A DNA stretch of 64,000 nt, from positions 1 to 64,000 of the forward strand of contig MU271421.1 of assembly GCA_021432655.1 (NCBI GenBank). Reading direction: 5' to 3'. A model generated the notes under the pieces. The model saw nothing but the letters and a program-made list of their open reading frames with translations, ran no database searches and was not told where the DNA came from. Below are positions 23,464-61,900 of this stretch, piece by piece (the stretch's first letter is position 1; every line of letters starts with the position of its first letter). The position numbers were made by a program, and so were the translations under genes. Source of the stretch: Atractiella rhizophila (lineage: Eukaryota).

Positions 23464-23761
23464 CGTGCGCGATTTCTCAAGCGAGTTGAATTTGGACATC
23501 TATGTGAACTTTTTTGACAAAGCAGGCCAAAATTTCGTCAATTTTCATCTATATATATATTCCCTGTTTTCGGGAACGTATTTTCATTCTGCCTACAAAC
23601 CAGACTGGAGCATGCGAAACGTTTACGCATCCCTTCTCTTAAGCTATAGCGTCGGCATGCACGATCCTGAGGGTGAGCGAGTGAATATGCGAACATTTGA
23701 TGTAGTTCATTGCTTCTGTACAAATCCTTATTTAGCTGATAGACTGATCATCTCCTCCTCT

Positions 23762-24663
23762 TCAGTGCTGCTGCAATTTGGCTTTCTCCTCCAGGACCTT
23801 CTTAACAGGTGCCATCTCCACCATCTTCTTGTGCCACTCATAAACTTTAGGGTATTTTTCAGGCTCGTCGATGCCTTTGAGAGGACCCAAAGCAGCCTAC
23901 AACCCACGTCAGGTGATTCTACAAAAGGATCAGCCAGTGAGCGCACTGTTAGGTTCCATGTAATGAAGGAAAGATCAGCAATGGTGCATTTCGATCCACC
24001 GAGCCATTCCCTCTTGGACAAGATGTCCTCAAGGACGCTCCATACCCGATTCACCTCGTTCTTGTACCGCTCTTGAGCTGAAGGAATCTTCTCTGGGTGG
24101 AACACGTTAAACCAAACGAATTGGCCGAAGCTGCACCAACCGTTTAGCAAGGTACAATATCTGTAAGGAACGGGGCTGCTCACTATGGACCTTGTCCACT
24201 CGACTGGAAGAAAAGGTATTGCAGCTCGATATACTTGTCCTCCGGCGAGGCCGCGGAGATTTTTCTCTCAGTGTCATACCTAAACAACGTCAGCACGGTT
24301 TCAGCAGTCAAGGTGGACAATACTTGTCAACGAGATACAGAATAATCGCACAAGACTCCCAAATAGTAAAGTCGTTGTTTCTGTGATCTATCAAGGTCGG
24401 TGCTCGTCCGTTCGGATTGAGCTTGGTGTATTCAGGTGCCTTGTGTTCGCCTGCAGCGAGGGGTCAGTCAACTTCTTCAAAAAGGGCGTCACCTGCCTTT
24501 TTGGAAGTCCAAGAATTTTTGTTCATACTTGAGTCCCAAGATTTCAAGTACGATTGCTACCTTCCAAGGCTAAAGTCGGGAAAGGAATAAGGTGAAGTGT
24601 TCGAAAAAGGGGAAAACGTACGTTTGGCCCACCAGTGTGAGAGTAGAGGGTGAAATCGGCCAT
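23762..24663 (-). CDS. Glutathione S-transferase, Ure2p-like class (copy 1)
   Basis: MADFTLYSHTGGPN/PWKVAIVLEILGL, EHKAPEYTKLNPNGRAPTL, IWESCAI, LQYLFFQSSGQG, KCTIADLSF. Ends KLQQH* at 23762. Confidence 0.92.
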
Positions 24664-25241
24664 CGTGTCTTGGTGTTATGCAAAGTTGGGTCAAACGCTT
24701 CTTCGTTGAGGAATGTAGGTACCTCCCTTCCCCTTTTATACCTTCCCTTCATACCCGTCATACTGAAGCGCACCACTCGCTTCCACAAGGGACCGCGATT
24801 GTGCGCTGACATGTGATGACACTAGCTGAGGGTCACTGAAAATATGGGCCCGACAGGACGAGCTCACTGGAAAGGGAATGAATTGGCAACAAAAGAAACA
24901 AAAGAAGCCAGAATAGGACGAAGGAGCTCCCGCACGCACCAACTGGCAAAAATATGAACTATCCTGGTTGCGCCTAATCCCAAGGTGATGAAGCATGAGA
25001 AAAATACTGGAGAACGGGAGCTTGCCCTGACCGACGGCCGCAAGGAGTCTTCGCTGGTGCAGGATGGTCGTCGGCAAGCTTAACCTCACCGATGGCAGGA
25101 TGCAACAACCTCATGGGTTGAGCTTTCGATCCGAGAATAGGCAAGCTGTCTCAACTGACCATTTGCATCTTACCAGCCGTGGCCAGAGTTGGAAGCTGAC
25201 ACTGAGCTGACATACATGGTGACTCAGCAGTGGAAAGCGGG

Positions 25242-25279
25242 CACTCAGCCCCTGGAAAGACTCCCGGCGCTGGTTAGGT
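25242..25279 (+). repeat. Left terminal inverted repeat (imperfect)
   Basis: cactcagcccctggaaagactc...gctggttaggt matches the reverse complement of 34344-34381 at 28/38 positions ungapped, with a perfect ccctggaaaga core. Confidence 0.7.
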
Positions 25280-25419
25280 TCTGGTAAAGTGATAGTTTGG
25301 TGCAATGTAGGTGCGGAGTGCTGAAAGAGTGAAAATTCCGGACTCTCAAACCACTCCCCCAGCACCAAGTTAAGCACTCAATTAGGTGGTGTGGGCATAC
25401 TTCGCAGATGTCCATCAAG

Positions 25420-25711
25420 GTACTCTCTAGGTGCTGAACACGTTCGATTTAGGTGCGGTTTAAGCGTCTCTTGGAGTGCTTATTGAGGTTACTTTCAGTG
25501 CTTTATGAGCGCTTGTCTGGTTTGCTTTAGGTGCAGTTATCGTGCCTTTTGAGGTGCTTATCAGGTTTCATTTAGGTGCAATCACAACGCCTTATGGGTG
25601 CTGGTAAGGTACTGCTGTACGTGCGGTTGGAGTGTTTTCGGAGTGCCGATTGAGTTCGCTTTCAGTGTTGTTACAGTGCCTATAGAGTGCTCTCAGGTTC
25701 GCTCAAAGTGG
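25420..25711 (+). repeat. Left subterminal array of degenerate RGTGC motifs with ~11-bp period
   Basis: GTGC at 25431, 25453, 25476, 25498, 25531, 25542, 25554, 25576, 25598, 25621, 25643, 25676 and 25687, with GTAC/GTTC/GTGT/GCGC variants at the intervening ~11-bp positions. Confidence 0.75.
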
Positions 25712-26984
25712 CATTATGCCTCCTTTCGCTCGGTTGATTGACACTGCAATAAATATCATTCCATTGCTAAAACTACCCTCAGCCTTCGAAACTTCTCTGA
25801 CCTCTGCATTCCTAGCCAGCGAGGCCGCAATCGGGAGACTGGACTCGCAGTCAAAAGTGATGGAATCGAGGAGGATGGAGACGGGATATGGCGGAGGAGG
25901 GACGACATTATTGCTGTTCCGATCCGGTCTCTGTAAAGTAGCGTCATCTCAGTACCAATTCCTTGACTGGGCGGATACGAAGATGAAGACCCAAGCAAAA
26001 TATTGAGTAAGACGTGCGTACGGAACGACATATTTTCGTTACAAATCCAGTTAGCAGTGTATTGGAGAACGATTAAAAGGGTAAACACGCACATTCCATT
26101 GGTCGTAAACACGCCCAGATGGGGTATCAAATGCAGGCAAATGGCGGCTGAAGTAGAACGGCTGAACCACGTTAACGATAGTCATACATAAAAGACTAAC
26201 GAATGTAACATACCATATCGACGTCTAAGCGGTGCTCGAGCACTGTCTAATTGATAGAAAAGTCACTGCTAAACCATGATTCTCATAAAGGAGATACGCA
26301 CCACGGCACAGCAATCATCTGATCAAAACACATTCAAACTTTCAACTGTCACAATCAGATCTACTCCAGGTCGTATGTTGGCGAATTTTAGAAAGAGTGT
26401 TAGAGGTTCCACTGACGAAACGCGTCTTGACCGTTATGCACCTACAAAGTGACTGTTCGTGTTCAACGCGAAAACGACGCGTCAAATCAGACACAGTGTA
26501 CATAAATCCAATCCTCCGATTACTGAAACGGATTCTGGGTAATTTGGTGTGTATTTGATAAGTGGGGTTCTCTAAGTCGTGATTGGACTTCGTCGTTCAA
26601 AACTGGCCCACAGGTCAGCTAAATAGTAAGGGAAGAAGAAAGAGAAATGCGTGGTGGATAGGTGGTGGATAGGTCCTGCTGATTATCGCAGAACGAGGGA
26701 GTCCTATCAGGGATATTTGCCTCAATTAGTGCAGTCAGAACTGGTGCACTGGTGCGCGAAGTTCTGCATCAACGGCACATTGGCAATTCTCTCGGTTTCA
26801 AAGCACAGGGAGGAAGAACACAGCGAATAGAGATGCCGACTGTAGATGACAAACAGCGCAGATTGTTTGTTCATAAGTTACGTTACGCTCCTAATATATG
26901 ACTTTGCCTGAATGGATATATGACCCTATTATTCCAAGATGATCCTGCACAATGTCAAGTGAGTAAAGAATGAATGAAACGTGA

Positions 26985-29900
26985 CTAATCATCTGGTGCT
27001 GGATCTGCCTGAAGATTCTCCTCCTCTGTTTGTTCGTCCAGAACCTCCTCCCAATCCGCTTCTCCTGAAAGATGCAAAGGTCTGCCAAAAGCGTATGAGT
27101 GAGGATGAAGGATATAGACGAAGTCCTCAAGCTGAAAGACCCCAATCAGACTGTGCACACGGCTTAATGGTATAACACCCCAGTCATCTGTCAGCTGTGT
27201 CTTGATCATGCTCGAGTAGCTCATTTCAGTCTCAGTGGTATCGATAACACCGTAGAATTGTGCCACGGCGACAGTGAATGATGCGCGCTCGATGTGGATC
27301 TGTACAAAAGAGTGAGCTTTACAGTAAACAGGTTCTCCACGAGATCCAATGACCTGGTGATAAATTCAGGCTCATGTCATCACGAAGGGAAGTGAAGCGC
27401 ACCTGCATCCTGCAACTGGACCTTGTAACTTGCTTTGAGCCTGCCTCCTGCCTTGCTGAACGAATTATGTGTCCATTCTTGAGGCGTATTTTCCCCCACC
27501 TTGTCCAGCTTGCTGCCATCTCTTCGAACTCGTCTTCTGATTTTGATACATTGAGATTGTTTGATGAACAAAACTCATGTAGTGCGACAACTTCCTTCTT
27601 CCACATCTCCTTATCAGGTCCTGTTACTCTGCGGTAAGGAAAAGATTCCCAGCGCGGAGCAATAAGAGCAGATGTAGTGCCTTCTTCGCCAAGATATTCA
27701 GCTCGAGATGAGCGAACAGCGAACTTCTTCTCAGGATAGCGGATATTAAGGACATTGAACTGTTCCCTTCGAATCATATTCTGTATCATGTTTTCAAAGT
27801 ACAGTCGCTTCTGAGTGATCGACTCCTTTGCCTGTCCGATAACTCGCTCACAGGCAAACTGAGAACAGAGTATTAAAGGTCCATGATTTCGAGTGTTGAG
27901 ACCTATGTGAGAAGTGGAATGGAAGTTCATGGTCGCCCGATCGATGTTGGAAGACTCTCCTCGGATGTAGATCTTCTCAAATCCTATAGCCCACTCTCCA
28001 AAGAAAGTCTCCATGTCCTTCACCTCGCTCTCGTGGAGTTCATATTGCCAAGCAAGTCGGAATCCTTGAATGAAGAGATCCCAGTTCTTGAGAACAGCTT
28101 CGTCTACTTGGAGGTGGACAAGGAGAGGAAGCGAGTACCAGTCAATGAACGCCCACCATTCGTGCATCTTATAGTGGGTATTTTGGGCTAGATTGATGGG
28201 GCGAGGAGCAGTAGCTGCAAATGCAGATGGGAGATCACACTTTGCTTCAGCCATCTTCTGACCGATCCAAGCTTGCTGATCTGCAGAAAGTCTCAGAGGT
28301 TCACGATCTGAATCCCGGCTCTTGGACTCGCCAATCCAAATTCGCCAGATAAGTCGCATAAGGTCCGCAAGAGTAAGATGAGATAAATCAAGTGGGTGAA
28401 AAGTAGCAACGTCAATGAAGGTAGGAAGACGAGAGCATTCAGATGGCCGTTTGATGCCCGTATCCTTGCTGATTTTCTTTCTCTGTGTGTCGTTAGGTGC
28501 GTGGCTAAGGCAGTGAAGAGTTTTGTAGTACTCCTTCGGTTTACGTTGAAGAGATTCGTCATAAGGGCTATACTGTACTGGCCGCCTTGAAGTTGTTGGA
28601 AGCGTCCCATCAGGATACCGGACTGTCCGCCATGTATAGTAATAAGTTCCAACGCCAAAAGCTCGTAGTTGACCATGAAGCCAACAAAATCGACAACCGC
28701 ACTTCCCCTGATGTCCTGTACACCCATTGAATTTTGTAGAACCCAACATATCTCCAAGTAGTGCTAACAGCCATCCTCTCCAGAGAAACCATTCCTCCTT
28801 AAATCGGTCATAGAGCCAGTGTCCTATTGATGCTTTCGTCATCTCCTTGAAAAAGAGATAGAAGAAAGATGAGATATTGATTGGATTGTTAGGACCTGGT
28901 ACGATGCAGAGGAGAAAGATATGCTCCTTAAGATAACGAGACTTTGGAGGATAGCAAGAGGCAGTGAGGATGAAGATCCAAGCGTTGCTGTCTGCACGCC
29001 GAAGCTGTAATGATGCGCCATCTGTTGAAGCATAAAAGGCTGTCTCGCGAGGATCTCGAAGGACATTCTGAGAGGATTTATGAAGGCTATGGAGAATTTG
29101 GCCATCGTACCAATCTCGATACTGCTTCTCCATCTTATCTACAACCTTTATGCTCTCATGAAGCAGCTTTCCGAAATCGCCAATCGACTTTGCAGTTTCT
29201 GGGTTGTCAAAGAGCTCGCGTAATCGTGGCAAGAAGCTCAGATATGCAAATTGCCGGCGAGGAAGCTGTCGATGAAGGAGTCGGGCTCCTGATTTCTTTG
29301 AGCGGACTGGCGTAAAGCGAGGTTCACCACAATGAGGGCAACTGTTTGTTGCAGGATCTTGGTATTCTCCTGTGAACCCCAGACAGGTATTCACACATTG
29401 ATCACGCCACTCAGCACGGAGCCTTGTCAAGTCCTGAAGAAGCTTTTGTGCTTGGTAAAGGGACCCTATCCGAAATCCAAGTGCTTCTTCAAGGTTGACA
29501 CGGTGTTCTTCGTATGACTTCTCTGTTGCCTTCGGTGAAATGATCCAGGCTCGAAGGTTTTTCAACGTCCAGTAATCCACATCAGAAAGAGGCTTTGGAG
29601 GTGACGGAGGGAGTTGTGGTTTGGGGCCAGGATTATGCCCATCGTCAGAGAAAAGAGAGAGAACATCGTCAGCTGAGAAACTAGAGGATGTCTCCTTTCT
29701 ACATTGATATAATTGTCAGTCAATGGAGTGACAGTGAGCTGGGTACTCACGAATCGCTAGGATCATTGTCTGAACCATCATCTCCACCTCCATCAACACC
29801 CATATGCAGATCCTCTTCTGTCTCGTCGATTTCCGGTGTTTGCTCCGGACTCTTAGATGGACGCTTACTGAACTGTCCATCCAGATCCTCTTCAGTCTCC

Positions 29901-30426
29901 AAATCAGAATCTTGCCCATTATGTTCTACTGGATGTTGAAGTGCGCTATCATAAAGATATCCACTACTGGTTTTCGAGAGTTCAAGCTGCGATTGTTGTT
30001 GAAATAGAGGATTCATTTCAGGAGGACGGAACTGGAAAGAAAAAGCTGTCGTAGCACGTTCTGGTGAGCTAGAAACTAGTAAGTAACGCTACGAGACAAG
30101 GCATTGATTGCTCACAGAGTTGGGGACCGTGAGTTGGTATCAATTTGGAGTGATCCCTCCTCCATTTCCCTTCCGCCAGAGTCACCGTGTGTTTGAACAT
30201 ACGATCTTGAGCCAACAACTTTGTTGTGAGAAGTCCGACGCCATTTGTTAGGTAACTCATCTTCAGGAGAATCAGATGAACGCTTCTTCGTAGCTGAAGA
30301 GACCATTGCTGGTGGGTATTTGCGCTGATGATTGTAGAAAGTAGATTTTGGTACCCATCTCCTGGGATCCGTCAATGGGAGCAGGCTACATTTCCAGCAA
30401 TTACATGTTTGACGAGGTGCAGCCAT
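26985..30426 (-). CDS. Transposase, tnp2/Transposase_21 (CACTA/EnSpm) family, spliced and apparently intact
   Basis: N-terminal CxCxxC...H (QTCNCWKC), DQCVNTC...CPHCGEPRF, DWYDG, STDG, LLCIVPGPNNP, GDMLG...GHQGKCGCRFC, DLSH, YKMHEW, NFHSTSHI...GPLILCSQFACERVIG. The 753-codon core is uninterrupted and the flanking exons appear to splice in frame. Confidence 0.88.
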
Positions 30427-30551
30427 GCGATTTAGTTTCACAAGAGCAATGGTTGTTAGTTCGGAGCTCGTTGACGTACTAAGTTATCGCTCCACATTCA
30501 CCAAGTTCTGAGTGTAACCTGCATTTTTTTTACTGTTGTCATTAAGATCTA

Positions 30552-33227
30552 ATGGCCACCAATGGAAGATATGCTAGCACCTATGGCAGTTCGAATAGTT
30601 GGCGGCAACACAATGACCTAACAGCAACGGGAACAGTACAGCCGTTTAGTTTGGCCACAAGCAATGACGGTCAACCTCGATCTACTTCACATTTTGCTTT
30701 ACCCTCGATGGATAATTCTTTTCCATTTCAAAATGAGCAGGCATTTACTTTACCTCCAGCCTTTTCGCCAAATGAGGCTACAAACTCAGGGAACGCAAAT
30801 TCCAACAATATTGTTACTCAAAATTTTGAGCTGAAGATGGAAAACAGTGCTTTAAAACGGCGTGTGGAATCTCTTGAAGCTCAACTTATTGATTCAAAGA
30901 GCGAGATCATTTTGCTCAAGGCGGAAATCACTTCATTAAAGCACCCCGAAAGACAATTTTCTCGGGACACCACATACTTTGCACCATCTTCAGAAGTATC
31001 CCCAGTCCTGACGAAGAAAAAGGAAATCTTTGGTCCTGTCAGTCGCCGTTACACTCTATCAACTCTACCTCAACACTTGTCCTTCCTGCTCAATCCTAAA
31101 TATTCTGCAACACCTCCCAAGACATGGGACCGAAACCGATTCCCTGCCAATGCAGATATTCCTTGGGACCGGCCTTCCCTAAAGTCAGAGAAAAAAGCAG
31201 GGCAATCTTTGCTTGCCCTTCGCTCCATCAAAGCTTGCATAAGGAAAGAAGACAGCGGAGCGAATGGGGGAACCACACGATATGTTGCGATTTCAGAAGA
31301 CGACTGGCGGAGCATCAACTCCAGCGTTGACTGGATCAGATGCTCAATCTTCGATGAGACGTCCGCACTTGATGGTCAAGACAAAGAGCTGGTTTCTGCT
31401 GTTTGCCGTTACCTTGAAGAATCACACCCCAGTCTTCAGCTTTGTAATGGGGGTTGGATTTCACGAGCTATACTTCAGAATAAACTGGGCAATAAGGCAA
31501 AGAAAACGCCAAAGGTATATTATCCAACCATGCTTTCATACAGTTCTAAAGGGCCCATCCATAGAGAATGCTAGACAGGATTGAAGATGAAACAGAAGAG
31601 AACTTAGCGCCGAAGCCGTCCAAACTATTTCGTGCAAAGGCAAGCTTCTACTTTCGTCAGCATCGCATATTAATACACTTGACAGTTGCAACGCTTGAAT
31701 GATACAACACCAACTCCATCAGACGACAATAGAAAGGGGAAAAAACGAATGCGTGATCAAGATAGAGATGCGGAGGAGATGGGTACAGTTGGCAAGAGAA
31801 GACGCATGGTGGGACATGCCGATAACACGGGTTAGTTTATATCTATTCAACTTATCTACAAGTTTTCTGAACATGAACACAGTTTCTGGATCCAATTCCA
31901 TCTTTGACTTATCGAACATTGGTGATTATGACTAATTCCATAGAGGCTCACTGATTCTTTCCGGTAGAATTTCTTCAAGACCTCTTTGAAGAGAACAATC
32001 CGCATCGCGATCTGTTGCAAGCACTCCATTCTGCCCTGTCCATCACCGGCAACTTTCCTCCTCCTCAAATATTTGATCATAACATCACACCAACCATAGA
32101 ACGTCTCATTGAAGTTGTCAGAGCAGATGTTGCAGCTTGGCGGCTTCAGACGACCGGACGTAGCTCTGAGCTCAGCGAGGAAGACGAGGACAATATTTTG
32201 ACTGGCTTTGGACACAAACTGGATCCGGCCAACATCAACAAGCTGTGCGACTGGAAGGAGATAAGATGTGCTGACTCCATAGTTGAAATTTTCGAACTCA
32301 TAGTATCCGGAATGAAGATAGAGTCCGGTTCACGCGATTGCAATTATCTATTTGTCACTGAGAAGCTCCACAAACTGGTGGAAGCAATTGTAGTTGGTTG
32401 GGTGGAGGGAAGAGGCAAAGGTCTGTTCGAATGGGTTTGTTTCTCCCAGGAATCCGTGCCATGAGAGGATAAAATTCTGAATGATGGGATAGGTTGGAGA
32501 TACCAGTTGGAAAAAATGCAACCTTCCACCGCCAAGCGTTCCTATTATCATCGAAGAGACTGTCCCCAGCACCAGACGCTTCGTGATGGATACAACCAGT
32601 CGAGAACAAACTCCTCCACCAGCTCAAGAACTTACAGATCTAACTAGGCAGACTCCACCTCTCCATACACGGCCTCAAAGGGGACAGTTAACTCCATCAA
32701 GTCCAGCTCCTAGCCCTGATAGCGTCAAAGCAAGCGACACTGCCAACAGGAACATAATTCATCCTCCTTATCCACGCCGTGCACTAGTTCCAACTCGGAC
32801 CACCTTTCATACGGACTTGACTACGGTAAATCCTTCCGATGGTGCAGTATTGCGACGAGGACGAGGACATAAAGAGGCCGGGGTGGGAAAGGGAAAAGAA
32901 AAAGAAAAAGAGAAGAAGCGCACGGCAGGAGAGACTGAAGAAGTACAGGTGGATGTTTTGTGGAGGTGGAAAGATGAAAAGGGCGAAGACCTTGAGAGCA
33001 AGAATAAAGCATGGGGAGCATCTGAGAAGGAACTGACCAACAGATATAGGTATACCATAAGCGATTGTAGGACTGTGCTCATGGTAAGACGTTTACATTG
33101 CACTTTCTACTTCACGTTGATGCAAACCTGGAATACTCAGGATTTTGGCCTTCCTACAAATGGAAAGAAGGCGGAACTGGTCCAGCGAATACTACGACAT
33201 CAAGCCGAGGTTCAAAGAAGTGAGTGA
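30552..33227 (+). CDS. Transposon accessory protein with coiled coil, NLS-like basic patches and a C-terminal SAP domain
   Basis: Exons splice in frame through six introns, one of them GC-AG. Coiled coil LKMENSALKRRVESLEAQL, basic RKGKKR and KRRR, and C-terminal YTISDCRTVLM/DFGLPTNGKKAELVQRI matching the SAP consensus (GL..sGkKaeLv.R). Confidence 0.72.
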
Positions 33228-34215
33228 GGTGAAGATTGCGTTGACAGTTAAAGGCTCCTTTTTCGGAGATGAACAGTTTGTACATTCATGAAAAGTATTC
33301 AGTTAGATTTACCTTCCGCTGTGACGCTTCTCAACGCTGTTTCAAAATGAATTGGCTACAGTTTAACAAAGTAATACACCTTTAAAAGGAGTCCAGGATG
33401 CAGTTGCTCAGAGGTCATGAAGCTCATATGAAGGGTCTCCTTCGATGCCATGAGGCATGGATATGTGTGGACGTTCAAACACGTTGCAGGTCTACTATCA
33501 CAACATCAATCCCTGACAATGCGGCAGCTTTGCTTTGTCAATCGCAAAAGTGAACCATCAAGATTCCAAAGACACTGAAAATCATCGGACTAAATGAAGG
33601 CGAGGACTCTGAAAGCTGACTGAAAGAACGTGTAAGGTTATTTACTCGAACAGCATCTGCACTACTTCACCCACTCCATTCCCTCTTTCATCCCACAGTC
33701 TACACAAAGGATCGTGTTGAAATGCTCGGTTGGTAGGAAACTGTGGGAACTGTCTTAGATTTCTCCATATGTCTACGAACGGAGGAGGCGACGAAAGAGG
33801 GAACGGTGTGTCGGTGCACAGAACATTCAGATGGCGAGCTCCTGTTTTACTAATGCAAAAGCGGAAGATCCATTGCAAACCCTTGGGGCATCAGAAAGCG
33901 GCCACAGCAAAGAATAGGTGCACACCTTTAGTTCAATATCTCAATTCTTCCTTCCATTCTTCAAGATTGCTCGCAGTTCGACCAGCCATCTGTCGCTGGT
34001 AAGAAAAGTTGAATGATTGCAGTGCCGAAGCATGGTGCAGCTCAGACATACCAACCTCTCACCTATGGCCGAAGTGTGCGAAGATATAGGCCACCTCATT
34101 TTCGGGCATGAATGGCGCAAAGGACGACGGTGGTAAGACAGGTCGTCGAGTTCGTTCTTACCGCTGTTTCGGCACGCAGTCACGTCCATCTTTCACATCT
34201 TACATCTCCTTTTTG

Positions 34216-34381
34216 CCACTCTGCAACCACATTGTATAGCACTTCGAAAAGCACTCAATCAACCTTGCAATTCCCTCCCACTAGTTCATAACCTATCCTG
34301 CACCTATCCCGCACCCTCCGAACCTTCAAAGCACCACATCACCACCTAACTAGCCGAACGACTCTTTCCAGGGACTCAGCG
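34216..34381 (-). repeat. Right subterminal GCAC array and right TIR (34344-34381)
   Basis: GCAC/CCAC motifs at 34216, 34227, 34239, 34251, 34278, 34300, 34311, 34331 and 34342 are inverted relative to the left array. They are followed by gactctttccagggactcagcg. Confidence 0.7.
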
Positions 34382-34496: not shown

Positions 34497-35430
34497 TCAA
34501 TTTTCCACTGAAGTAGCTCCCCTGGCAGAGTTGAGGGACTGTCGATATTCCAAGACCTTCTTCACCTGTGGCATTTGGAGCATCTTATTATGCCACATTG
34601 TGACGTTCTGAAATTGAGTGTCAACATCGTTCACTACTTTGTCCATATAAAGCGGCTGTAAAGTGTGAGGTTGGCACAAATTGCAGGGATAAAGAGAATG
34701 ACGTACCAAATGATTCCAAAGAAGGAACGAGAGGTCTGCGACTGTGCATTTGGACCCCACCAGCCATTCCCGGTTCGCTAAAATCCCATCCAACACACCA
34801 AGGACACGGCGGATCTCGTTCTTGTAGCGCTCTTCAGCAGAGGCAATCTTTTCCTGGTGCAAATGCTTGAACCAAACCCATTGTCCAAAGCTAGTCCAGA
34901 AGCATTAGATTGTTCCACGATTGACGAGGGAAGCCTGACTATGGCCCTTGCCCACTCGCTTGGAAGAACAGATATTGATTCTGAATCGCCTTTTCTTCTG
35001 GCGTCGAAGCTGAAATCTTGTGCTCTTTATCGTATCTGCGAGAAATTAGACCATTCCTACGCGCTGATGGAAAGAGAACCTGTCGATGAGGTAGAGAACG
35101 ATAGCATTCGATTCCCATAACTGAAAGTCGCCATTTTTATGATCTATGATAGCGGGCACTCGACCATTTGGGTTGATGTTCGTGAACTCCGGCACCTTAT
35201 GCTCTCCTTCACCTTCTCATCAGCCGAGCGTTTGGAGCATTAAGTGGAACTCAAACCTTTTTCGAATACAAGGAATTTGTGTTCGTAGCTGAGTCCCAAG
35301 CATTCGAGCACGATAGCTACCTTCCACGGCTTTCATGGTTCGAAATGAGTAACAGGAAACAGGAACGGCGGATTGCCCATACATTTGGTCCATTAGTGTG
35401 GGAATACAGAGTGATGTCTTTGGACGACAT
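34497..35430 (-). CDS. Glutathione S-transferase, Ure2p-like class (copy 2)
   Basis: MSSKDITLYSHTNGPN/PWKVAIVLECLGL, EHKVPEFTNINPNGRVPAI, LWESNAI, FQASGQG, KCTVADLSF. Same intron layout as copy 1. Confidence 0.92.
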
Positions 35431-37149
35431 TGTTGGTGATAGTTTTAGAAATGCTGACAATGTTGATGGGCGACGGGGACGACTGCTACAGCACTCTCTT
35501 TTAAATGTCACGCATATTTGTTTTGAGCCAGGTTGCTGCTTCTTGGTCAAAACAATGATTACTGAGCAGGAAGAAATGTGGAGGCAGGATACAGTCCCCG
35601 AAAGGAGAGTCGACAGATGGTGTCCTTCACCCGCCGGTTCCACGACTGCAACACTGACCGAAGAAGAAGACCGAAGCTTGCGCGGACAATGCAGCCTTGA
35701 GCCAGTTGAGCAATCGCTGGCTCAGCTTTCAAAATGCTTAGTCAAGGAATCCAGGCCAAGCCTCCACATCAGCCCTCATTATCATGAACAGGGGAATTAG
35801 AGGAAGATTTGGCATCCACAGGCGACATTACTCTCCCGACAGAGAGGAAAAAAGGAGGAACAGAGAAAGGTGCATGTTCGTGCGCTTCATTCAGCTATAC
35901 TCCGCCTTTGTCCGCCGCTGCTCATCTAATGCTTATCAGGGACTCCTCTGCGGACGAAATTTAGAGGCGTTGGCGTCAAGCCTCTCTGAATAGAAATGAA
36001 ACGATGAAGAGCCTAATAACGTTTCCATCCCAAATTCCCTTTGGGCGGAGTACTTCCTTTGCTTCTCAGGCTGGTTTTGTATCCAACATTGTGACATTCC
36101 TTGCAGTCAGTTGACTTGGCGGAAGGATATAGCAAGCTGTACTGGGCTGGCTTCTCAGATGAATTTTGAGACAGAGGACAGCAGAATGAATAATTCCGCC
36201 GGTTTTTATCTGCGAACATGGCTACCTTGGCAAACGAGGGCACTCACTCTCATTCCATCTCCTTTATCACAAATTCGATGGGCGTCACTGTCATCCCGTC
36301 CAGCATGACTCGTTCTCCAATTTGAAATTTCGACTGATCTTGTGAATACGGCGTATACGGAAAGGTTAAGGTTAGAAATGCGGGAGTGCTGGATGCGAGT
36401 TGAGACTGGGAACAAGTCTGAATTTACATAGCTGTATGATAGGCCTTATATAAACATGAAATACCAATGATACCATAAACGAAAAGAGAAGATGCAAGAC
36501 AGTAAAGTAACAATAAGAAGAGACGAAATAGTGGAACGAGAACAGATACTAACAATCATTACAGGATCACCTAATGCGTGACCCGAATGTCGCAATGGAG
36601 GAAGAATGATGGGGAGGGAAGGGGTGTTGGATGGACGGGGAATTCCCCAAAGTAGTCTCGAAGACGTCGAGGGGAACCATGACTCTTAGCAGCAGAGTCA
36701 TCGTATCCACATTGTGCCGGTGACTCTTGTCGCTGATGCTACATGTACTATGTTCCGAGAAGAAGGCTCGGAGAAGCGATAGCGAGAAGTGGTAGCGACA
36801 ATACTGGCGACATTACTATACAGGGTGACTCCTGTGGATTAGGTGTGTACTCTGCTTATGGCTCATGAATCGTGTTACCTTTTTCAGAGTCTTCTCTTTT
36901 TGCTTCCTCTCACGCTGTCGACATTGACAGCTCTGAGTTGTCCAACGTAAACTACAGTATCTCGATATCTTAATTCTACACCTAGCCGTCAAGACAAGAA
37001 ACTCAGGATCTTCGTCCGCAGCTACATCTCCCTCATCTTTTTATGCCACGCACAGTTGTGGGTCTTCTACAGGCTGACATGGGCTTCATGTGTAGTCAGT
37101 AGTTGAAATTACTCTTAGAAATATAAAAAAGTACTATCGCGTCCTAAAC

Positions 37150-37835: not shown

Positions 37836-38293
37836 CTGGTACTCAGGCGGATGTTGATGTTGATGAGAATCAAGGGTCGTTAACCTTGGGCAGAGAATAG
37901 ATGCAGAGAGACTAGTATTTATAGCCTTTAATTCCTGCCTCCTGTCGTGTGTGAACGGCAAAAGCAGTCTAGCTTGCCTGTGCTTGAGAAACACTCTACT
38001 ATTACGCATTGGAAGTGCTTGCGACACGACAAGCTACGGCGATAAGCATCATATCGGGAGAGTTGAGAGCTGCCACGCCGAGATAACCAAACAGGTCACT
38101 GTCGATAGCCTGCTTAGCGCGCAGAGTTGACTTGCTGAATAGCACGGCGCCATCGATCGGAGTATTGAGACACTGCTGCATCTGCACAAGAACCATCAGT
38201 TCGGGTTATTGTTCATCAAATCAGCAACGGTTCATACTGGTCTGTGCACTGTGCCGAAATGTAAGACTGATCACGATTATTGGTAGCAGAACT

Positions 38294-39832
38294 ATGACCG
38301 TGCGAGGTGATCTTCCGGTTCCTACTGAAATCCTTGTCCTCATCCTGGAGCTGCTGTGGAGCATTCTGCGTGTCAATGACGAGCGGCCAACCGCCGCATC
38401 GAAAAGCATTTCTCCGTTAATGTTGGTTTGCAAGAGATGGAAGCCGATCGTCTCTGGCATCCTTTGGTCAGAGCTCTACATCCTTGATGACGACTACTTC
38501 GACTGGCTTGGGCAGGAAGACGATGGACGCTTTATTCACACGACCCGGGTGACCATCAAGTTTGCGCCATGGCAGCTTCAAGCACGAAGTCTAGAATCAG
38601 CCCACCGATTCTCAGAATCTACCAATGCACTTCTTTCAAAGACTCGCAACCTCGAACACCTAGAAATCAGTTTCCCATCAGGATCTCCGGGTTTACTTTT
38701 GTGGAATGTACTTCCCAGACTGAGGGTGCTTATTTTACGCGGCCCACTCGCATTGAAATGGCTTTCTAGGACCTCACTAGGAGGGGTGGAACATCTAACA
38801 GAACTGAAATTGGTCAACGTGGCGCATTTGGAGGAGTTTGCTTTCACAGAATGCTCCTCTCTACGAACACTGGAGTTGCGACATTGCCGCCAAAAGGAGG
38901 ATGCAGGACCTTTGCAGCTTCCCGTCTCTCTCAACAGCTTTTATTTTCACTCGGATGAGGATCTAGATGTCAATACCATCCAGAGCCTGACTTCCATCTC
39001 CTCATCACTGAAAGTCTTGCAGCTATGGGGCACCGTTTTTCAAGAGAAAGTTGGCCCCACTATCCGGTTGCCATCATTTCCAGCACTTGAGCGACTATCA
39101 CTCCTCCCCATGTTTCATCGAATCGGCGCTCTCGATTTGTTTGACCTTGCTCCGTTGATATCCCAGTCCCTCCAACTTCGAGAGCTCGAACTCTGTGGTG
39201 TATCCATGATCACAGCCACTTTTGGCACCTTCTTTCCTCATTTGGAGCTGCTCTCGATACAGAACGGCTATATCCATCCAGATCTATGCCTCCCTTACTT
39301 CCGTCAGACCCTGAACTCGCTTTCACGTTTAACTTTGGAGTTTAGCTTAGTGTCCAACATTCCCGCATGGGAGGCCAATCTCGGTATTCTGCTTACTCCT
39401 AGCCTCGTCATTCTCCGCATAGATACATCTGACTTCAGAAATTTCTGGAAATGTGACGACGCGATCAAAGCCATCAATCGGTGCACTTCACTTCGTTTGC
39501 TGTATCTCGATGTCGGCATGCAAGACTGCCACCAACTTTTCGCTCAACTCACAATTCCACTCACCTTTCTCATGGCCTCTCTATTAGATCACGAGATGGA
39601 CACTTTACTAGAGGATCTATGGGCGTCCATCCAGAGAGGAGGACTGCGCGGATTGAAAAGAGCGCGAGTATCTGTGGGGGGCCGGATCTTAGGCCGCGAG
39701 GATTTAGAAGATGGCCCAGAAGGACTGAAGAAATGGATGGTGGACAACGAAGTGCAATTTGATCAGACCCTTGCCGAGCTACCTCTGACCAAATTCCACA
39801 GATGGGCTCAGAATGTGATGCTCAATCTCTAG
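38294..39832 (+). CDS. F-box / leucine-rich-repeat (RNI-like) protein, copy 1, intronless
   Basis: F-box-like LPVPTEILVLILELL...LMLVCKRWKPIV, followed by LxxLxL repeats (LEHLEI, LRVLIL, LTELKL, LRTLEL, LERLSL, LRELEL). Likely start MTVRG at 38294. Confidence 0.8.
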   Translation: MTVRGDLPVPTEILVLILELLWSILRVNDERPTAASKSISPLMLVCKRWKPIVSGILWSELYILDDDYFDWLGQEDDGRFIHTTRVTIKFAPWQLQARSLESAHRFSESTNALLSKTRNLEHLEISFPSGSPGLLLWNVLPRLRVLILRGPLALKWLSRTSLGGVEHLTELKLVNVAHLEEFAFTECSSLRTLELRHCRQKEDAGPLQLPVSLNSFYFHSDEDLDVNTIQSLTSISSSLKVLQLWGTVFQEKVGPTIRLPSFPALERLSLLPMFHRIGALDLFDLAPLISQSLQLRELELCGVSMITATFGTFFPHLELLSIQNGYIHPDLCLPYFRQTLNSLSRLTLEFSLVSNIPAWEANLGILLTPSLVILRIDTSDFRNFWKCDDAIKAINRCTSLRLLYLDVGMQDCHQLFAQLTIPLTFLMASLLDHEMDTLLEDLWASIQRGGLRGLKRARVSVGGRILGREDLEDGPEGLKKWMVDNEVQFDQTLAELPLTKFHRWAQNVMLNL

Positions 39833-40742: not shown

Positions 40743-41127
40743 AGACTAGTATTTATAGCCTTTAATTCCTGCCTCCTGTCGTGTGTGAACGGCAAAAGCA
40801 GTCTAGCTTGCCTGTGCTTGAGAAACACTCTACTATTACGCATTGGAAGTGCTTGCGACACGACAAGCTACGGCGATAAGCATCATATCGGGAGAGTTGA
40901 GAGCTGCCACGCCGAGATAACCAAACAGGTCACTGTCGATAGCCTGCTTAGCGCGCAGAGTTGACTTGCTGAATAGCACGGCGCCATCGATCGGAGTATT
41001 GAGACACTGCTGCATCTGCACAAGAACCATCAGTTCGGGTTATTGTTCATCAAATCAGCAACGGTTCATACTGGTCTGTGCACTGTGCCGAAATGTAAGA
41101 CTGATCACGATTATTGGTAGCAGAACT

Positions 41128-42666
41128 ATGACCGTGCGAGGTGATCTTCCGGTTCCTACTGAAATCCTTGTCCTCATCCTGGAGCTGCTGTGGAGCATTC
41201 TGCGTGTCAATGACGAGCGGCCAACCGCCGCATCGAAAAGCATTTCTCCGTTAATGTTGGTTTGCAAGAGATGGAAGCCGATCGTCTCTGGCATCCTTTG
41301 GTCAGAGCTCTACATCCTTGATGACGACTACTTCGACTGGCTTGGGCAGGAAGACGATGGACGCTTTATTCACACGACCCGGGTGACCATCAAGTTTGCG
41401 CCATGGCAGCTTCAAGCACGAAGTCTAGAATCAGCCCACCGATTCTCAGAATCTACCAATGCACTTCTTTCAAAGACTCGCAACCTCGAACACCTAGAAA
41501 TCAGTTTCCCATCAGGATCTCCGGGTTTACTTTTGTGGAATGTACTTCCCAGACTGAGGGTGCTTATTTTACGCGGCCCACTCGCATTGAAATGGCTTTC
41601 TAGGACCTCACTAGGAGGGGTGGAACATCTAACAGAACTGAAATTGGTCAACGTGGCGCATTTGGAGGAGTTTGCTTTCACAGAATGCTCCTCTCTACGA
41701 ACACTGGAGTTGCGACATTGCCGCCAAAAGGAGGATGCAGGACCTTTGCAGCTTCCCGTCTCTCTCAACAGCTTTTATTTTCACTCGGATGAGGATCTAG
41801 ATGTCAATACCATCCAGAGCCTGACTTCCATCTCCTCATCACTGAAAGTCTTGCAGCTATGGGGCACCGTTTTTCAAGAGAAAGTTGGCCCCACTATCCG
41901 GTTGCCATCATTTCCAGCACTTGAGCGACTATCACTCCTCCCCATGTTTCATCGAATCGGCGCTCTCGATTTGTTTGACCTTGCTCCGTTGATATCCCAG
42001 TCCCTCCAACTTCGAGAGCTCGAACTCTGTGGTGTATCCATGATCACAGCCACTTTTGGCACCTTCTTTCCTCATTTGGAGCTGCTCTCGATACAGAACG
42101 GCTATATCCATCCAGATCTATGCCTCCCTTACTTCCGTCAGACCCTGAACTCGCTTTCACGTTTAACTTTGGAGTTTAGCTTAGTGTCCAACATTCCCGC
42201 ATGGGAGGCCAATCTCGGTATTCTGCTTACTCCTAGCCTCGTCATTCTCCGCATAGATACATCTGACTTCAGAAATTTCTGGAAATGTGACGACGCGATC
42301 AAAGCCATCAATCGGTGCACTTCACTTCGTTTGCTGTATCTCGATGTCGGCATGCAAGACTGCCACCAACTTTTCGCTCAACTCACAATTCCACTCACCT
42401 TTCTCATGGCCTCTCTATTAGATCACGAGATGGACACTTTACTAGAGGATCTATGGGCGTCCATCCAGAGAGGAGGACTGCGCGGATTGAAAAGAGCGCG
42501 AGTATCTGTGGGGGGCCGGATCTTAGGCCGCGAGGATTTAGAAGATGGCCCAGAAGGACTGAAGAAATGGATGGTGGACAACGAAGTGCAATTTGATCAG
42601 ACCCTTGCCGAGCTACCTCTGACCAAATTCCACAGATGGGCTCAGAATGTGATGCTCAATCTCTAG
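41128..42666 (+). CDS. F-box / leucine-rich-repeat protein, copy 2 (identical to copy 1)
   Basis: Same translation as 38294-39832. Confidence 0.8.
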   Translation: MTVRGDLPVPTEILVLILELLWSILRVNDERPTAASKSISPLMLVCKRWKPIVSGILWSELYILDDDYFDWLGQEDDGRFIHTTRVTIKFAPWQLQARSLESAHRFSESTNALLSKTRNLEHLEISFPSGSPGLLLWNVLPRLRVLILRGPLALKWLSRTSLGGVEHLTELKLVNVAHLEEFAFTECSSLRTLELRHCRQKEDAGPLQLPVSLNSFYFHSDEDLDVNTIQSLTSISSSLKVLQLWGTVFQEKVGPTIRLPSFPALERLSLLPMFHRIGALDLFDLAPLISQSLQLRELELCGVSMITATFGTFFPHLELLSIQNGYIHPDLCLPYFRQTLNSLSRLTLEFSLVSNIPAWEANLGILLTPSLVILRIDTSDFRNFWKCDDAIKAINRCTSLRLLYLDVGMQDCHQLFAQLTIPLTFLMASLLDHEMDTLLEDLWASIQRGGLRGLKRARVSVGGRILGREDLEDGPEGLKKWMVDNEVQFDQTLAELPLTKFHRWAQNVMLNL

Positions 42667-43086: not shown

Positions 43087-45567
43087 TCAAAAGCCTTCGA
43101 ATGCGTCCCTATCCATCTAGATCAGGCACCATACAACAGAAGTGATATCGTAGACTCACCCATGTTTAGACCTCCCAGTCCACACTCCATAAGAGGAGGT
43201 ATCAGCCTCATCGTATCTGTCGAAGTGTTCCTCCTTCTCGCTCGGTCTCCAAGGAACTGGCAATTCCTTCCTCCATAACGCGTTCCAATCGACCTCGTTG
43301 AACCAAGGGTGATCGAACACGTCCTGCCATCCTCCGGACAAGTTCCCGAGTCGCTTGGTACAATCCGGTTCCAACAAACGCGTCACGATGGAGATTGAGA
43401 GGGGGGTAAAGTGGTGTGTGAACTGGAGTTTGCATGCCAGAATCTTCTCGTACAATCGGATGGGGTTGCTGTTCGCAATTGTGGTCAGTTAGTAAATAAA
43501 AGTGGAGAATGAAGGAGGGAAGGACTTACTTGTCTCCGGTGTGGAATGGAGGGTAGCCGGCGATCATTTCGAAGATGAGAACGCCAAGCGACCACATGTC
43601 TACCGACTTGTTGTACCTCACACCTCGTACACTGTCCCACAACCAAACCAACTCGTCAGTCATCTATTGATCGAGAGACGGGAGAGAGACGAACATTTCG
43701 GGTGCCAAATAGTCCGGCGTTCCACAGAGGGTCCATGTATCCACCTCCACCTCTTTGGCGAATCCAAAATCCGTAATCTTCACATGTCCCGCATTATCTA
43801 TTCCTCTCATCAATTCCATCCCACAATGAATAGGGTGAACGAACCTATGAGGATGTTTTCGGGTTTCAAATCCCTATAAACGATTCCCAAACCATGTAAG
43901 AAGTCCAGCCCAGCAGCCACTTCCGCCGCATAAAACTTGGCCACTGCGTCCGGAAACCTATGGCTCCTCCTGATCAAACCGAAGAGTTCGCCTCCACCGA
44001 CCCAATCGAGGACCATAAAGACTCTCTCGTCGTCCTGGAGGGTTCCCCAGAGTGTGACAAAGAAAGGATGTCCGCGAGTTCCCTCCGGTCTCCTCCTGTT
44101 CAAAGGGTGGGACGCAGTGCTCCTAAACTGTCCATCTCCTCCATTCCCGGAAGAGGAGGAGGAAGACGAAGCGGGAGTAGAGATGAGCGCGAGGACCCTT
44201 CGTTCTGATCGGGTGTGAGCCACTTGTTTAAGAGCGACCACTTTGTCCTTATTTAAGACCTTGATCGCATAGGCAAGCCCGTTCGTGGCGCTCGCAGCGA
44301 GGTGGACGCGTCCAAAGGTCCCTGTTCCAACGGTACGTTTGAGGTGGAAGTCACGACGGATGTCGTATTTGTGCGTTGCCGGAGTGCGGAGCGAAGTTGT
44401 AGTTGCCGCTGGGGTCGAAGGGGATTGAGCGGTGGAAATGGCGACTGGCGACGGTGTGGGATAGGCGTTGTAGGTGGGATAGGAAGAGGTATGGTGGTGC
44501 GAGATCGGGTGTTTGGATTTGAAAGGAGGGATAGGACCTGGGACGAGAGTCTTGAGGTTGGTCGTGTCTTGACCGTTTTGAGAGCCGTTCTCATGTCCGT
44601 TACTGGACTCATACGAAGGATAGGCAAGTCCGGAAGGCACCTGCTGAGGCTGAGTAGAAGACTGGACTTGAGAATGCGTGTAATGGTGATGATCCTTATT
44701 TAAGACCTTGATCGCATAGGCAAGCCCGTTCGTGGCGCTCGCAGCGAGGTGGACGCGTCCAAAGGTCCCTGTTCCAACGGTACGTTTGAGGTGGAAGTCA
44801 CGACGGATGTCGTATTTGTGCGTTGGCGGAGTGCGGAGCGAAGTTGTAGTTGCCGCTGGGGTCGAAGGGGATTGAGCGGTGGAAATGGCGACTGGCGACG
44901 GTGTGGGATAGGCGTTGTAGGTGGGATAGGAAGAGGTATGGTGGTGCGAGATCGGGTGTTTGGATTTGAAAGGGGGGATAGGACCTGGGACGAGAGTCTT
45001 GAGGTTGGTCGTGTCTTGACCGTTTTGAGAGCCGTTCTCATGTCCGTTACTGGACTCATACGAAGGATAGGCAAGTCCGGAAGGCACTTGCTGAGGCTGA
45101 GTAGAAGCCTGGACTTGAGAATGCGTGTAATGGTGATGAGGTTCCCTATCGAGTGCGACGTGTTGTAGGGTGAGATCTCCATCTTCAAATGTACCATCGT
45201 CGCTGGTGTCCATCATGATATCCTTGGCGCCAATTCCGACTTTGTGCGGCTTCCCATCCCTAGCCAACCCCGGAGTGGGATATCCTCCAACGCCTCCGTG
45301 CACAGAGAGGACGACTTCGGAGGACTTGTCCGTGTTCGAGGAACGTGAGGAGTCCCGCGAGTGTTGCGTCCCCTTCTTCCCTGGACGCCGGAACTTGTTG
45401 GTTGCGTTGGAGAGGAAGTTGGGCGTGTGTGGACGGGACATTGATCTTCTTTTGGCGACTATCGCTGCTGGTGGTAACGGCGGGAGTGGCGGTGGTTGAT
45501 GTGATCTGGAAGGAGGGCTGTTGGAGGAGAGGTTCGAATTGGACTTGAGACGACGGATAAAGGACAT
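43087..45567 (-). CDS. cAMP-dependent protein kinase catalytic subunit (AGC/PKA), with an internal 149-aa in-frame duplication
   Basis: [69 protein letters not shown]. The spliced last exon gives the PKA hydrophobic motif DAFEGF* at 43087. Confidence 0.92.
44246..45139 (+). repeat. Tandem duplication, 2 x 447 bp, inside PKA exon 1
   Basis: 44246-44692 repeats as 44693-45139 with ~4 substitutions (2 synonymous, plus P/A and A/S). Confidence 0.95.
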
Positions 45568-58999: not shown

Positions 59000-61900
59000 C
59001 TAACCATCCCTCTTTCGTTCCAATTCTTGTTGCCTCACCAACTCGAAATACGTTCCTCTAGCGTTCATCAACGTTTTGTGGTTCCCAACTTCTACAACTC
59101 TCCCTTCAGACGACGTATATCCGCGTGGCATTCTGGATGGTGCTCAGTCGGTGGGCAACGGCGATCGTACCTGAAGCGAAGGTGGTCAGAACTTTTGAGA
59201 ATGGTGCAGCGCAAGGCAGATGACATACCGCGGCCTTGTGCAGCAGAATCGAGTGCGGCTTGTACCACCTTCTCAGATTCTGAATCCAGTGCGCTCGTTG
59301 CTGTAAAGGCACCGTTTAAGACAAGTAAGCAAGCGCTAGCTGTGAAACGCACCTTCGTCAAGCAAGAGGATTCGTGGGTTCCTAGAAAGATCTTAGCGAC
59401 CGCTATTTGATAGAGAGAGGGCAAACCAACCGTATCAGGGCACGCGCGATAGCAATGCGTTGTTTCTAAATAACGTCTCTCTCTCAGACTCAGTTCTGAC
59501 TATAAGACATCACGTACTTGACCACCACTCAGAGCTGCTCCTTTGCCGCCGACTTCCGTGTCATATCCATCTGGTAAAGTCGAGATAAACTGTGATACAA
59601 GTCAGGCAAAGTAAATGTCGTGCAATTCAAGACGCACATCATGAATGTTGGCGCTTTTGCATGCTTGTTCAACCTCCTCTTGAGTGACTTGGTCCATCGG
59701 CTTCGTTGATCCAAGCATGACATTGAACTTGATGCTGCCAGAGAAAAGAGTCTACCAAAGGCATTCAATGTAAGACCAATAAAGGAAACGGTTCATACAG
59801 GCTCTTGGCTAACAAGCGCTATTTGTGAACGGTAATCTTTCACGTTAAGGTCTCGAATGTTGACGCCATCCAAGAGAATTTGACCTGAGCGCTTCATTCA
59901 ACTTGCATGGAATCTCATCCAGGCTAGACGTACCTCCTAAGGGATCATAGAATCTCTCCACGAGTTGAACTATCGTCGATTTGCCACAACCGCTCTATTC
60001 GGCAGCTCAGTTCCTGCACTGTTAAAAATGAACCGTCTCACCTGTCCGACGAGGGCAACAAACTCTCCCGCGTTGAGTTCGATATTGAGACCGCGTAACA
60101 CAGGTCTGCAAAATTATTTCAACATTCGCACAGGGTTGAGCAAGACACCCACATGTCTGGACGTGTAGGATAGTTGAATCGCACATTCCTGAACTCAAGT
60201 TTGTTGATTTCTTTCTCATCCGAAAGCTTCTTTCCGTCCTCGGATTCATCGTCAACTTTTGGCCCTGTATGCTCTAGTCAGCTTAAGAAACTTGAAAAGG
60301 AAAATGGAGCGTACGGGAGTCCATCAGGTTCAAAATGTCGCTCGCCGCACCTCGTCCCTGAGACGCATCCGGGACAAATGTGAAGATATTTCCAACATTA
60401 TTGGCTCCAAAAATGACGGCAATAAGACATATGAAGAATACCCTCGTCTACTTCAAATGTGAGCAGGTGTAGTAAACGAAGGTGTGGCGACGAACAGAAT
60501 AACCTTCGTTGACCAGGAGTCGTGAGCCCCACCAGAAGATCAGTGCCAATATCCAGAACATTCCCGCTAAACCTCTCATATTAGCACACAAGACAACGTT
60601 TCGACGCGGACGCTACCTTGAGTGAAAGCGAACCTGTGGAACGGTTAGAAAGTTGTGATAGCTAGGACTACTGACGCACAGCAGGTTACCCCAAAGCGTA
60701 TGCAGGTTGTTCCTTCGAGCTGGCGCATTCAGAGCTTCGCTGTATTCCTTTACACAAGGATCCTCTCGAGTGAGGGCTAATCCATCCATTTGCTTAACTC
60801 TCCTGCATCTATGGAGAACACGTACAAGCGACCGTTCTGATGGCACTCGCGCATTCGCATGCTTTTTGGGCAGAGTCTGACCCATCGATGAGCAGAGGCC
60901 ACATAACGGAAAGGAAGAGGCACCTTCGTAAGAAGTTCGAGTGAGCTTGTCTTTCAGCACCACAACCTTCAGGCGAACAATGCCTGCTCCGACTGTGATG
61001 CTATCCATGGAATTACTTGATTGCCCTCAGAGAGAGGAAGCAAACACACGGGAGACAAGCTAGGCCTGTAGAGAGAATGCGATTGAGCGCACAACGTCAC
61101 GGCAAACACATCGCTTACCAACCTAGAATTTTATCAGCCAGTATAAATCAATGCAGGGACGAGACTCACAATAGCAATTTTCCAGCCATAGGCAAGACCA
61201 ACTTCACAGATGACATCAATTCATCTAGCTTCGCTCGGTAGAAAGACGACTCACCTATGGCACCACCGAGAAGAGTTAACATGTTCTGGAATATAACACC
61301 AAGTGTTTCTCCTGAGAGGGGATTGAACTGATCGGTCCTGATTTAGCCACTATCCACTGACAGCGTCAGATTTTAACGAACCTTCTCTGGCTTGTCCGAT
61401 ATGGCAGACGTAAGAGCACCAGCAGAATTCCGATCTTCGTCAAAGAACGCGATATCCTGCTTTAGCGTCGATTGGAACATAATCAGTCTGAGGGTACGAG
61501 ACATGGCCTCTCCACATCAATTCATCTAGCTTCGCTCGGTAGAAAGACGACTCACCTATGGCACCACCGAGAAGAGTTAACATGTTCTGGAATATAACAC
61601 CAAGTGTTTCTCCTGAGAGGGGATTGAACTGATCGGTCCTGATTTAGCCACTATCCACTGACAGCGTCAGATTTTAACGAACCTTCTCTGGCTTGTCCGA
61701 TATGGCAGACGTAAGAGCACCAGCAGAATTCCGATCTTCGTCAAAGAACGCGATATCCTGCTTTAGCGTCGATTGGAACATAATCAGTCTGAGGGTACGA
61801 GACATGGCCTCTCCAGCCCAACGATAACAGTACGTTTGTACTAGAATCGCTGTTGATGCAACCAGAGCGAGAGCGAAGAGATACAGCCTGCAAGGGTTAA

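Follow-up and report, generated by a model that had tools for sequence, protein, structure and literature searches.

The length of the target-site duplication and the terminal letters serve to classify DNA transposons, and the newest survey gives duplications of 2-5 bp for the CMCT (CACTA/Mirage/Chapaev/Transib/RAG1) clade as a whole, with 3 bp in EnSpm elements of rusts, TA in ESTA and 2-3 bp in Plavaka (PMC12730594). That fungi carry CMC elements is well established (PMC5751038). In Cryptococcus, CNIRT6 has a length of about 7.5 kb, 24-bp repeats and a 3-bp duplication, and CNEST duplicates TA (PMC12810828). In plants, CACTA elements likewise duplicate 3 bp, and a single transcript encodes their proteins TnpA and TnpD (PMC8195511, PMC8978399, PMC1636069); animal relatives start with CCC and duplicate 2 bp (PMC1636069). 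Here, we present a two-gene transposon located at positions 25250-34373 of a 64,000-nucleotide stretch of the Atractiella rhizophila genome (assembly GCA_021432655.1, contig MU271421.1, positions 1 to 64,000 of the forward strand), which is referred to as the window.

A first-pass annotation, made from the letters of the window alone, had described this region as an intact CACTA-like element with a divergent SAP-domain gene that may fill the role of TnpA. We report the boundaries of the element, its 7-bp duplication, an empty allele, two intact genes, the DDE motifs and the RAG1-like predicted fold of the transposase, and a bias in target choice. Our preferred reading, with a probability of about 85%, is an autonomous cut-and-paste transposon from a basidiomycete sub-lineage of the CMCT clade which makes an unusual 7-base staggered cut.

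Results

Boundaries, termini and subterminal motifs

The transposon comprises 9124 bases, starts with CCCTG, ends with CAGGG and is flanked by exact 7-bp direct repeats of host DNA (25243-25249 and 34374-34380). The register for locating the ends was set by the CCCTG starts of related elements in the genome. Right-flank contigs from two DNA sequencing runs as well as a small contig of the assembly (C1646) begin at 34374, the first base of the right duplication copy. The left terminal inverted repeat (25250-25279, plus strand) and the right one (34344-34373, minus strand) are imperfect, with 21 of 28 bases complementary between the ends. The boundaries had originally been placed at 25242 and 34381, which is 8 bp too wide at each end, and the CACT terminus read there is composed of one host base and the left copy of the duplication. 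CACT termini at these positions are ruled out by the register of the 7-bp repeat and by the empty allele; both ends carry CCCTG. Registers of 5, 8 or 9 bp arise only by chance extension in some copies, and none of them fits this site and its empty allele. A sequence closely resembling the duplication, followed by an end-like GTGGAAAG word, occupies 25223-25238, at a distance of 20 bases on the left side of the insertion. It is present in the empty allele too and may reflect chance or be the trace of an earlier event.

Inverted termini and subterminal arrays had both been noted before. The termini stand in their imperfect form, and the array is confirmed at the left end and is weaker at the right. 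The left array of RGTGC/AGGTG motifs (25299-25700, plus strand), which is shared with the related copy on contig C241, belongs to an end with 14 RGTGC in 480 bp, compared with 0.82 expected window-wide (top 6-mer, p=0.003). Of its 13 spacings, 11 deviate by no more than 1 bp from a multiple of 11, the pattern that motifs along a single helical face would be expected to give. The short right cluster (34243-34347, minus strand) belongs to an end with five RGTGC in 224 bp, and the 6-mer test is not significant there (p=0.87). Subterminal repeat motifs as known from EnSpm/CACTA elements are thus clear on the left and weak on the right.

Empty allele and genomic setting

The two DNA runs derive from one sample, possibly the source of the assembly, and both contain both alleles. 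The filled allele is represented by a contig of 9184 bases that covers the whole element together with its two junctions (depth 133 and 86). The empty allele appears as a joint in which 9131 bases (9124 + 7) are skipped and seven letters can be assigned to either side, at depths of 286 and 144; the depth of the flanks is 363-400 and 228-262. The empty allele carries one copy of the 7-mer, and the insertion is therefore polymorphic. The search for an empty site proposed with the first annotation was thus successful. The depths suggest two haplotypes at about 1:2, depth being no share of cells, and haplotype differences in the flanks of the element are few. A similar share, one third, is seen in the DNA runs for a cluster of variants at 23894-23947. 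The small contig mentioned above (C1646:1-1910, L015) starts exactly at 34374, shares 99.8% identity with the right flank across the compared 1227 bases, and is the assembler's leftover of the other allele.

The element is inserted between two tandem minus-strand genes for glutathione S-transferases (GST; 23700-25214 and 34497-35444). The left GST gene has a long spliced leader which ends about 35 bp from the insertion, so that the element may affect its expression.

A family of elements with 7-bp duplications

Searching the genome with the transposase gave at least 70 matches, 56 of the 182 candidates having been scored, and 32 regions, including that of the window, were examined; many of the relatives carry stop codons. 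Pairs of CCCTG...CAGGG ends were counted if at least 21 of 28 bases were complementary and if they lay around a transposase match; one region that lies within a long inverted duplication (C149) and weaker chance pairs were left out. An exact 7-bp duplication is present in 9 of 14 transposase-bearing CCCTG pairs and in 0 of 1 and 4 of 5 further end-pattern pairs, which amounts to 13 of 20 pairs found by their ends alone. Three more elements, with CTCTATG ends, have 7 bp as well and were detected by a duplication-first search. None of the remaining pairs points to a regular 2-3-bp duplication. One sister fragment starts with CACTG, and the asymmetry between the two ends recurs in relatives. In three copies (C119:62950-71349, C16:17099-26497 and C33:32700-41623), 2-5 additional bases separate a repeat of 6-7 bases from the ends, possibly through imprecise joining or as old footprints.

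A long opposite-strand frame just upstream of the transposase could be aligned from 13 of 18 listed elements, whose transposases span about 24-71% identity, and the head-to-head layout anticipated for further copies is found in these. Among the other five, frames of a similar kind occur in C489 and C677, and a homologue of the partner protein's middle domain is present in C29 (36%); C204 and C187b were not aligned. The transposase tree was built from 13 rows of this genome and P0004. Among the top 8000 candidates scored, a single relative came from outside the genome, P0004, which its source assigns to Tilletia indica; the database protein searches gave two matches each on this basis, and the range outside the genome is thinly sampled. 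Pattern matches in metagenome contigs (72 + 19) and viral contigs (60) included none confirmed as relatives.

Several fragments belong to the surroundings of this family. A 2.2-kb piece with a right end and SAP exons (C267:59839-62061; L013, L014) lies between 2.3-kb flanks that form an inverted duplication at 99.8%, the product of either aberrant transposition or an assembly artefact. Two more ends of the window subfamily (C103:70099 and C119:28458; L072, L074) are located in a 3.5-kb segment duplicated at 95%, and no transposase was found behind them. For the C241 copy, no right end could be located.

Target-site preference

Across the 12 exact duplications collected first, the target is biased towards nnTnAnn, with T at position 3 or A at position 5 in 21 of 24 half-sites (p=6e-10) and purines at -2 in 22 of 24. 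A held-out test started from 45 ends of two subfamilies (30 out of 36 pattern hits in one and all 15 in the other), minus 8 used before and 3 duplicate flanks. Both T3 and A5 are present in 26 of these 34 flanks, compared with 0-3 at register shifts of 1-2 bases, which confirms the 7-base register independently of the pairing of ends. The C33/C43 subfamily fits the motif less well.

The transposase

The transposase gene (26985-30426, minus strand) consists of four exons (30426-30116, 30068-29751, 29698-27403 and 27353-26985) encoding 1097 aa without internal stops, in agreement with the spliced, uninterrupted gene expected at this place. The predicted membership in Transposase_21 is plausible: this is the sole family matched (E=1.7e-4), with 21.3 bits lying below the curated Pfam cut-off of 28.6. 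Among 14 aligned members, Transposase_21 was matched in 12 and DUF4218 in 3, with no match to a Plavaka or KDZ (Kyakuja/Dileera/Zisupton) domain, and Atlas neighbours at 0.96-0.97 are Transposase_21 clusters from basidiomycetes. The residues D436, D526, C545-x2-C548, H803-x3-H807 and E827 are invariant columns of the alignments and agree with the motif definition of the CMCT clade (PMC12730594).

A structure predicted from the 14-row alignment reached a predicted local distance difference test score (pLDDT) of 66 and a predicted template modelling score of 0.67; a single-sequence model (pLDDT 36) was rejected. The accepted model is most similar to RAG1 (Foldseek E=9e-9; VIA Z 14.5, root-mean-square deviation 4.7, 476 residues aligned), followed by ProtoRAG, the P element (Z 10.7) and Transib (Z 10.3). 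A RAG1/Transib-like fold, as is characteristic of the clade, is therefore present in a predicted model with pLDDT 66. Searches of PDB sequences with alignments A1 and A3 gave nothing significant. Compared with the C241 copy, the ratio of non-synonymous to synonymous differences (pN/pS) is 0.24; in the longer segments, synonymous sites are close to saturation. Contigs from run X3, a run of unspecified kind in which 14 of the joints listed are intron-sized, overlie parts of exon 3 on one strand or the other.

The head-to-head partner gene

The partner gene (30552-33227, plus strand) comprises seven exons for 788 aa. One of its introns is of the GC-AG type and the frame contains no internal stop, so the second, fully spliceable gene of the first-pass annotation was correctly recognised. 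The same holds for the start codons of the two genes, at 30426 and 30552. They are separated by exactly 125 bp (30427-30551; 118 bp in the C241 copy), a spacer that may serve as a shared promoter. The database protein P0001, a hypothetical protein of Atractiella rhizophila, is identical letter for letter within the partner model and lacks the first 95 residues and exon 2. One X3 contig skips the predicted last intron, and the 5' part of the gene has no X3 coverage, which is evidence neither way.

The protein is composed of a coiled-coil-like stretch, a helical domain, basic stretches, a middle domain and a C-terminal SAP domain. The helical domain (31062-31514, plus strand) ends in an L-x-x-C-x-G motif and is common to the partners of 13 elements; C128 and G130 are present in at least 90% of the rows of alignment A3. 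The best pairing involving the window copy is with the C56 group (hhalign E=3e-4, probability 40%). The SAP domain (PF02037; 33054-33200, plus strand) is split by the intron 33084-33140. As expected from the earlier reading, it scores above the Pfam cut-off, both in the unspliced sequence (E=4.5e-6) and in P0001 (E=3.8e-8). The last exon is 79% identical in C241 and 75% in C267, the two sister SAP exons having been located by tblastn. A SAP scan covered 232 of 246 partner-strand frames of at least 55 aa from 16 other loci together with four proteins and matched P0001 only; short or intron-split SAP exons can escape such a scan. SAP was thus located only in the window copy, C241 and the C267 fragment. 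As a key feature it is valid for this copy and not lineage-wide: being limited to one subfamily, it does not define the lineage, and it is the helical domain that is common across subfamilies.

No TnpA-type Pfam family such as Transposase_24 and no kelch domain was matched in the partner, and the Atlas gave no usable lead (best 0.76; TM 0.21). In the partner segments compared with C241, pN/pS is 0.33-0.54; in the longer ones pN is 0.30-0.40 and pS is 0.74-0.82, close to saturation, and the gene is therefore kept by purifying selection.

Other features of the element and the window

No third gene was found at 25730-26984 or 33230-34200. A spliced antisense transcript lies inside the right end (33469-34052, minus strand; X3 joints 33849-33926 and 33995-34052, GT-AG on the minus strand). 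Its longest ATG frame has 66 aa, with no clear reading frame, and it may be read-through from the right GST gene. No Rfam match was obtained in the window, which includes 36340-36500, where a repeat of very high depth in the DNA runs begins. Two frames of 581 aa (38087-39829 and 40921-42663) begin alike and have an F-box-like match in common; they lie 2834 bp apart and represent either a recent tandem duplication or an assembly artefact. Near-perfect two-copy tandem repeats at 44246-45139, 61213-61815 and 62122-62733 (periods 447, 301 and 306), inside kinase and ABC-transporter frames, are likely assembly artefacts.

Discussion

Proposed mechanism and alternative explanations

By RAG1/Transib chemistry, a dimer of the transposase would pair the CCCTG ends and excise the element. 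From this chemistry and the palindromic bias seen here, we propose that the ends are joined to the two strands of a near-palindromic target (nnTnAnn, with purines at -2/-3) at points staggered by 7 bases, whereupon gap filling would yield the 7-bp duplication. The part of the partner is evenly balanced in our estimate: made from the putative shared promoter in the 125-bp spacer, it could bind the phased subterminal motifs via its helical domain and act like TnpA in maize Spm, helping to pair the ends or to control the promoter, with SAP as an added DNA grip in the window subfamily. A rather unlikely role is that of an anti-silencing or transcription regulator which keeps the element expressed and stays outside the cutting complex. 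Such a protein would account for the fast divergence between subfamilies, for the basic nuclear-signal-like stretches and for SAP as a chromatin-binding motif, and fungal transposons often carry anti-silencing cargo, with VANDAL as a plant precedent (PMC12730594). It fits poorly with the fixed head-to-head position in 13 aligned elements with such diverse transposases and with the phased motifs, which suggest a binding scaffold, and no enzymatic domain was found in the partner with Pfam. It is very improbable that the SAP gene is a captured host gene travelling as a passenger, an idea already largely refuted. SAP occurs in many host proteins; yet every homologue of the partner in the assembly lies within or next to a related element (transposases being its neighbours at C241 and C29, a matching end at C267), and database searches with it gave just P0001 and the C241 sister. 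With the purifying selection and the empty allele, this supports the partner as part of the element.

Several observations weigh against our reading of a 7-base cutter with a conserved partner. Seven of the 20 end-pairs have no exact 7-bp repeat, although in three of them a 6-7-mer stands a few bases out of register, one of the three having a 4-bp match as well. Homology between the partners of different subfamilies is weak (hhalign probabilities 0.1-63%), and the shared helical domain has no Pfam or PDB match. No transposase splice joint is among the 15 of 19 X3 joints listed. The nearest other copy in the contigs of the genome is only 70% identical, so there is no sign of a burst, and the polymorphism may have arisen through insertion or through exact loss. 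The element could be an intact, dormant old copy on one haplotype with the empty allele arising by exact loss, an explanation that we consider tentative and somewhat below even. It agrees with a single copy without close relatives, with ends that are only 21/28 alike and with the many relatives carrying stops. The perfect duplication, two open genes, the scarcity of haplotype differences in the flanks and the spliced partner joint in X3 argue in the other direction, as does the recurrence of the end asymmetry in relatives. Of the former description as recent or active, recent fits the polymorphism and the perfect duplication, and active is not shown, for want of a near-identical second copy. 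Finally, the 7-bp duplications might be made in trans by another enzyme of the genome, such as a P-like transposase. As a rule, a transposase recognises the ends of its own element, and the 7-bp rule extends across several end types and deep branches, each with its own tnp2-type gene under purifying selection, which makes this a highly improbable source and leaves the element's own transposase as the preferred one.

Comparison with known systems

The window element is CMCT/CACTA-related and has two genes, and to this extent the proposed CACTA lineage is retained; the CACT ends, the 2-5-bp duplication and the layout of canonical CACTA elements are not. Its duplication lies outside the 2-5 bp of the CMCT clade, the 7 bp being fixed by the empty allele and by 13/20 pairs. 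The CACTA/CACTG (CA..TG) termini of EnSpm/CACTA are absent, and the second protein comes from a separate opposite-strand gene instead of the same transcript. Since termini, duplication length and gene layout all differ, the element is not a canonical CACTA member. Neither the domain nor the TGT or CATCA termini nor the 2-3-bp duplication of Plavaka (PMC12730594) was found, and the KDZ transposase domain is likewise absent, SAP lying in a separate gene.

Among the closest systems are EnSpm of rusts (Kojima 2025, PMC12730594) and CNIRT6 (PMC12810828), which share a Transposase_21-type DDE enzyme, the C(2)C and H(3-4)H motifs, short terminal repeats and a similar size. They differ in CAC/CACTG starts and 3-bp duplications, as opposed to CCCTG, 7 bp and the nnTnAnn bias, and the available texts describe no head-to-head partner for them. 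Maize En/Spm (PMC1636069, PMC8195511) also combines a transposase, a second protein and subterminal motif arrays; it differs from the two divergent genes of the window element in its single alternatively spliced transcript, CACTA ends and 3-bp duplication. The animal TRC elements (SmTRC1, PMC1636069) share Transposase_21 similarity and CCC-starting ends, and are unlike the window element in their 2-bp duplications and a second protein made by alternative splicing. Plavaka, ESTA and CNEST are fungal CMCT members as well, with 2-3-bp or TA duplications and other termini (PMC12730594, PMC12810828). Duplications of 7 bp are made by the fungal elements Kyakuja and hAT7, the transposases of which (KDZ and hAT, respectively) are unrelated to that of the window; Kyakuja has no terminal inverted repeats (PMC12730594).

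A 7-bp EnSpm/CACTA lineage or a SAP partner was not found described in the literature, Repbase and Dfam lying outside this search. Duplications as long as 7 bp may also occur in Lanisha elements, in which case the present lineage would be less novel. The available portions of four further sources (PMC4455052, PMC9674265, PMC8969392 and the Bostrychia preprint 10.1101/2025.02.11.637652) contain nothing on a 7-bp group. Detectors of CACTA elements which demand CACT ends and 2-3-bp repeats would miss or misfile such a lineage. The length of a duplication is set by the distance at which two active sites hold the target. RAG1, ProtoRAG and Transib are associated with a 5-bp duplication and a kelch-type RAG2 partner. 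These proteins (PDB 4wwx, 6b40 and 6pqn) are the best structural matches to the predicted transposase, at about 10% identity. Only tentatively, and with some doubt, do we suggest that the window element represents an unnamed CMCT branch, a lineage of its own apart from EnSpm, with a RAG1-fold enzyme, a 7-base stagger, a palindromic nnTnAnn target and an obligatory head-to-head partner from a new DNA-binding family, of which this copy would be live and recently inserted. As the copy is complete and polymorphic and its empty site is known, excision, target choice and the role of the partner are directly testable, and its enzyme, which combines a RAG1 fold with a 7-base stagger and base-specific target choice, lends itself to comparison with RAG and Transib.

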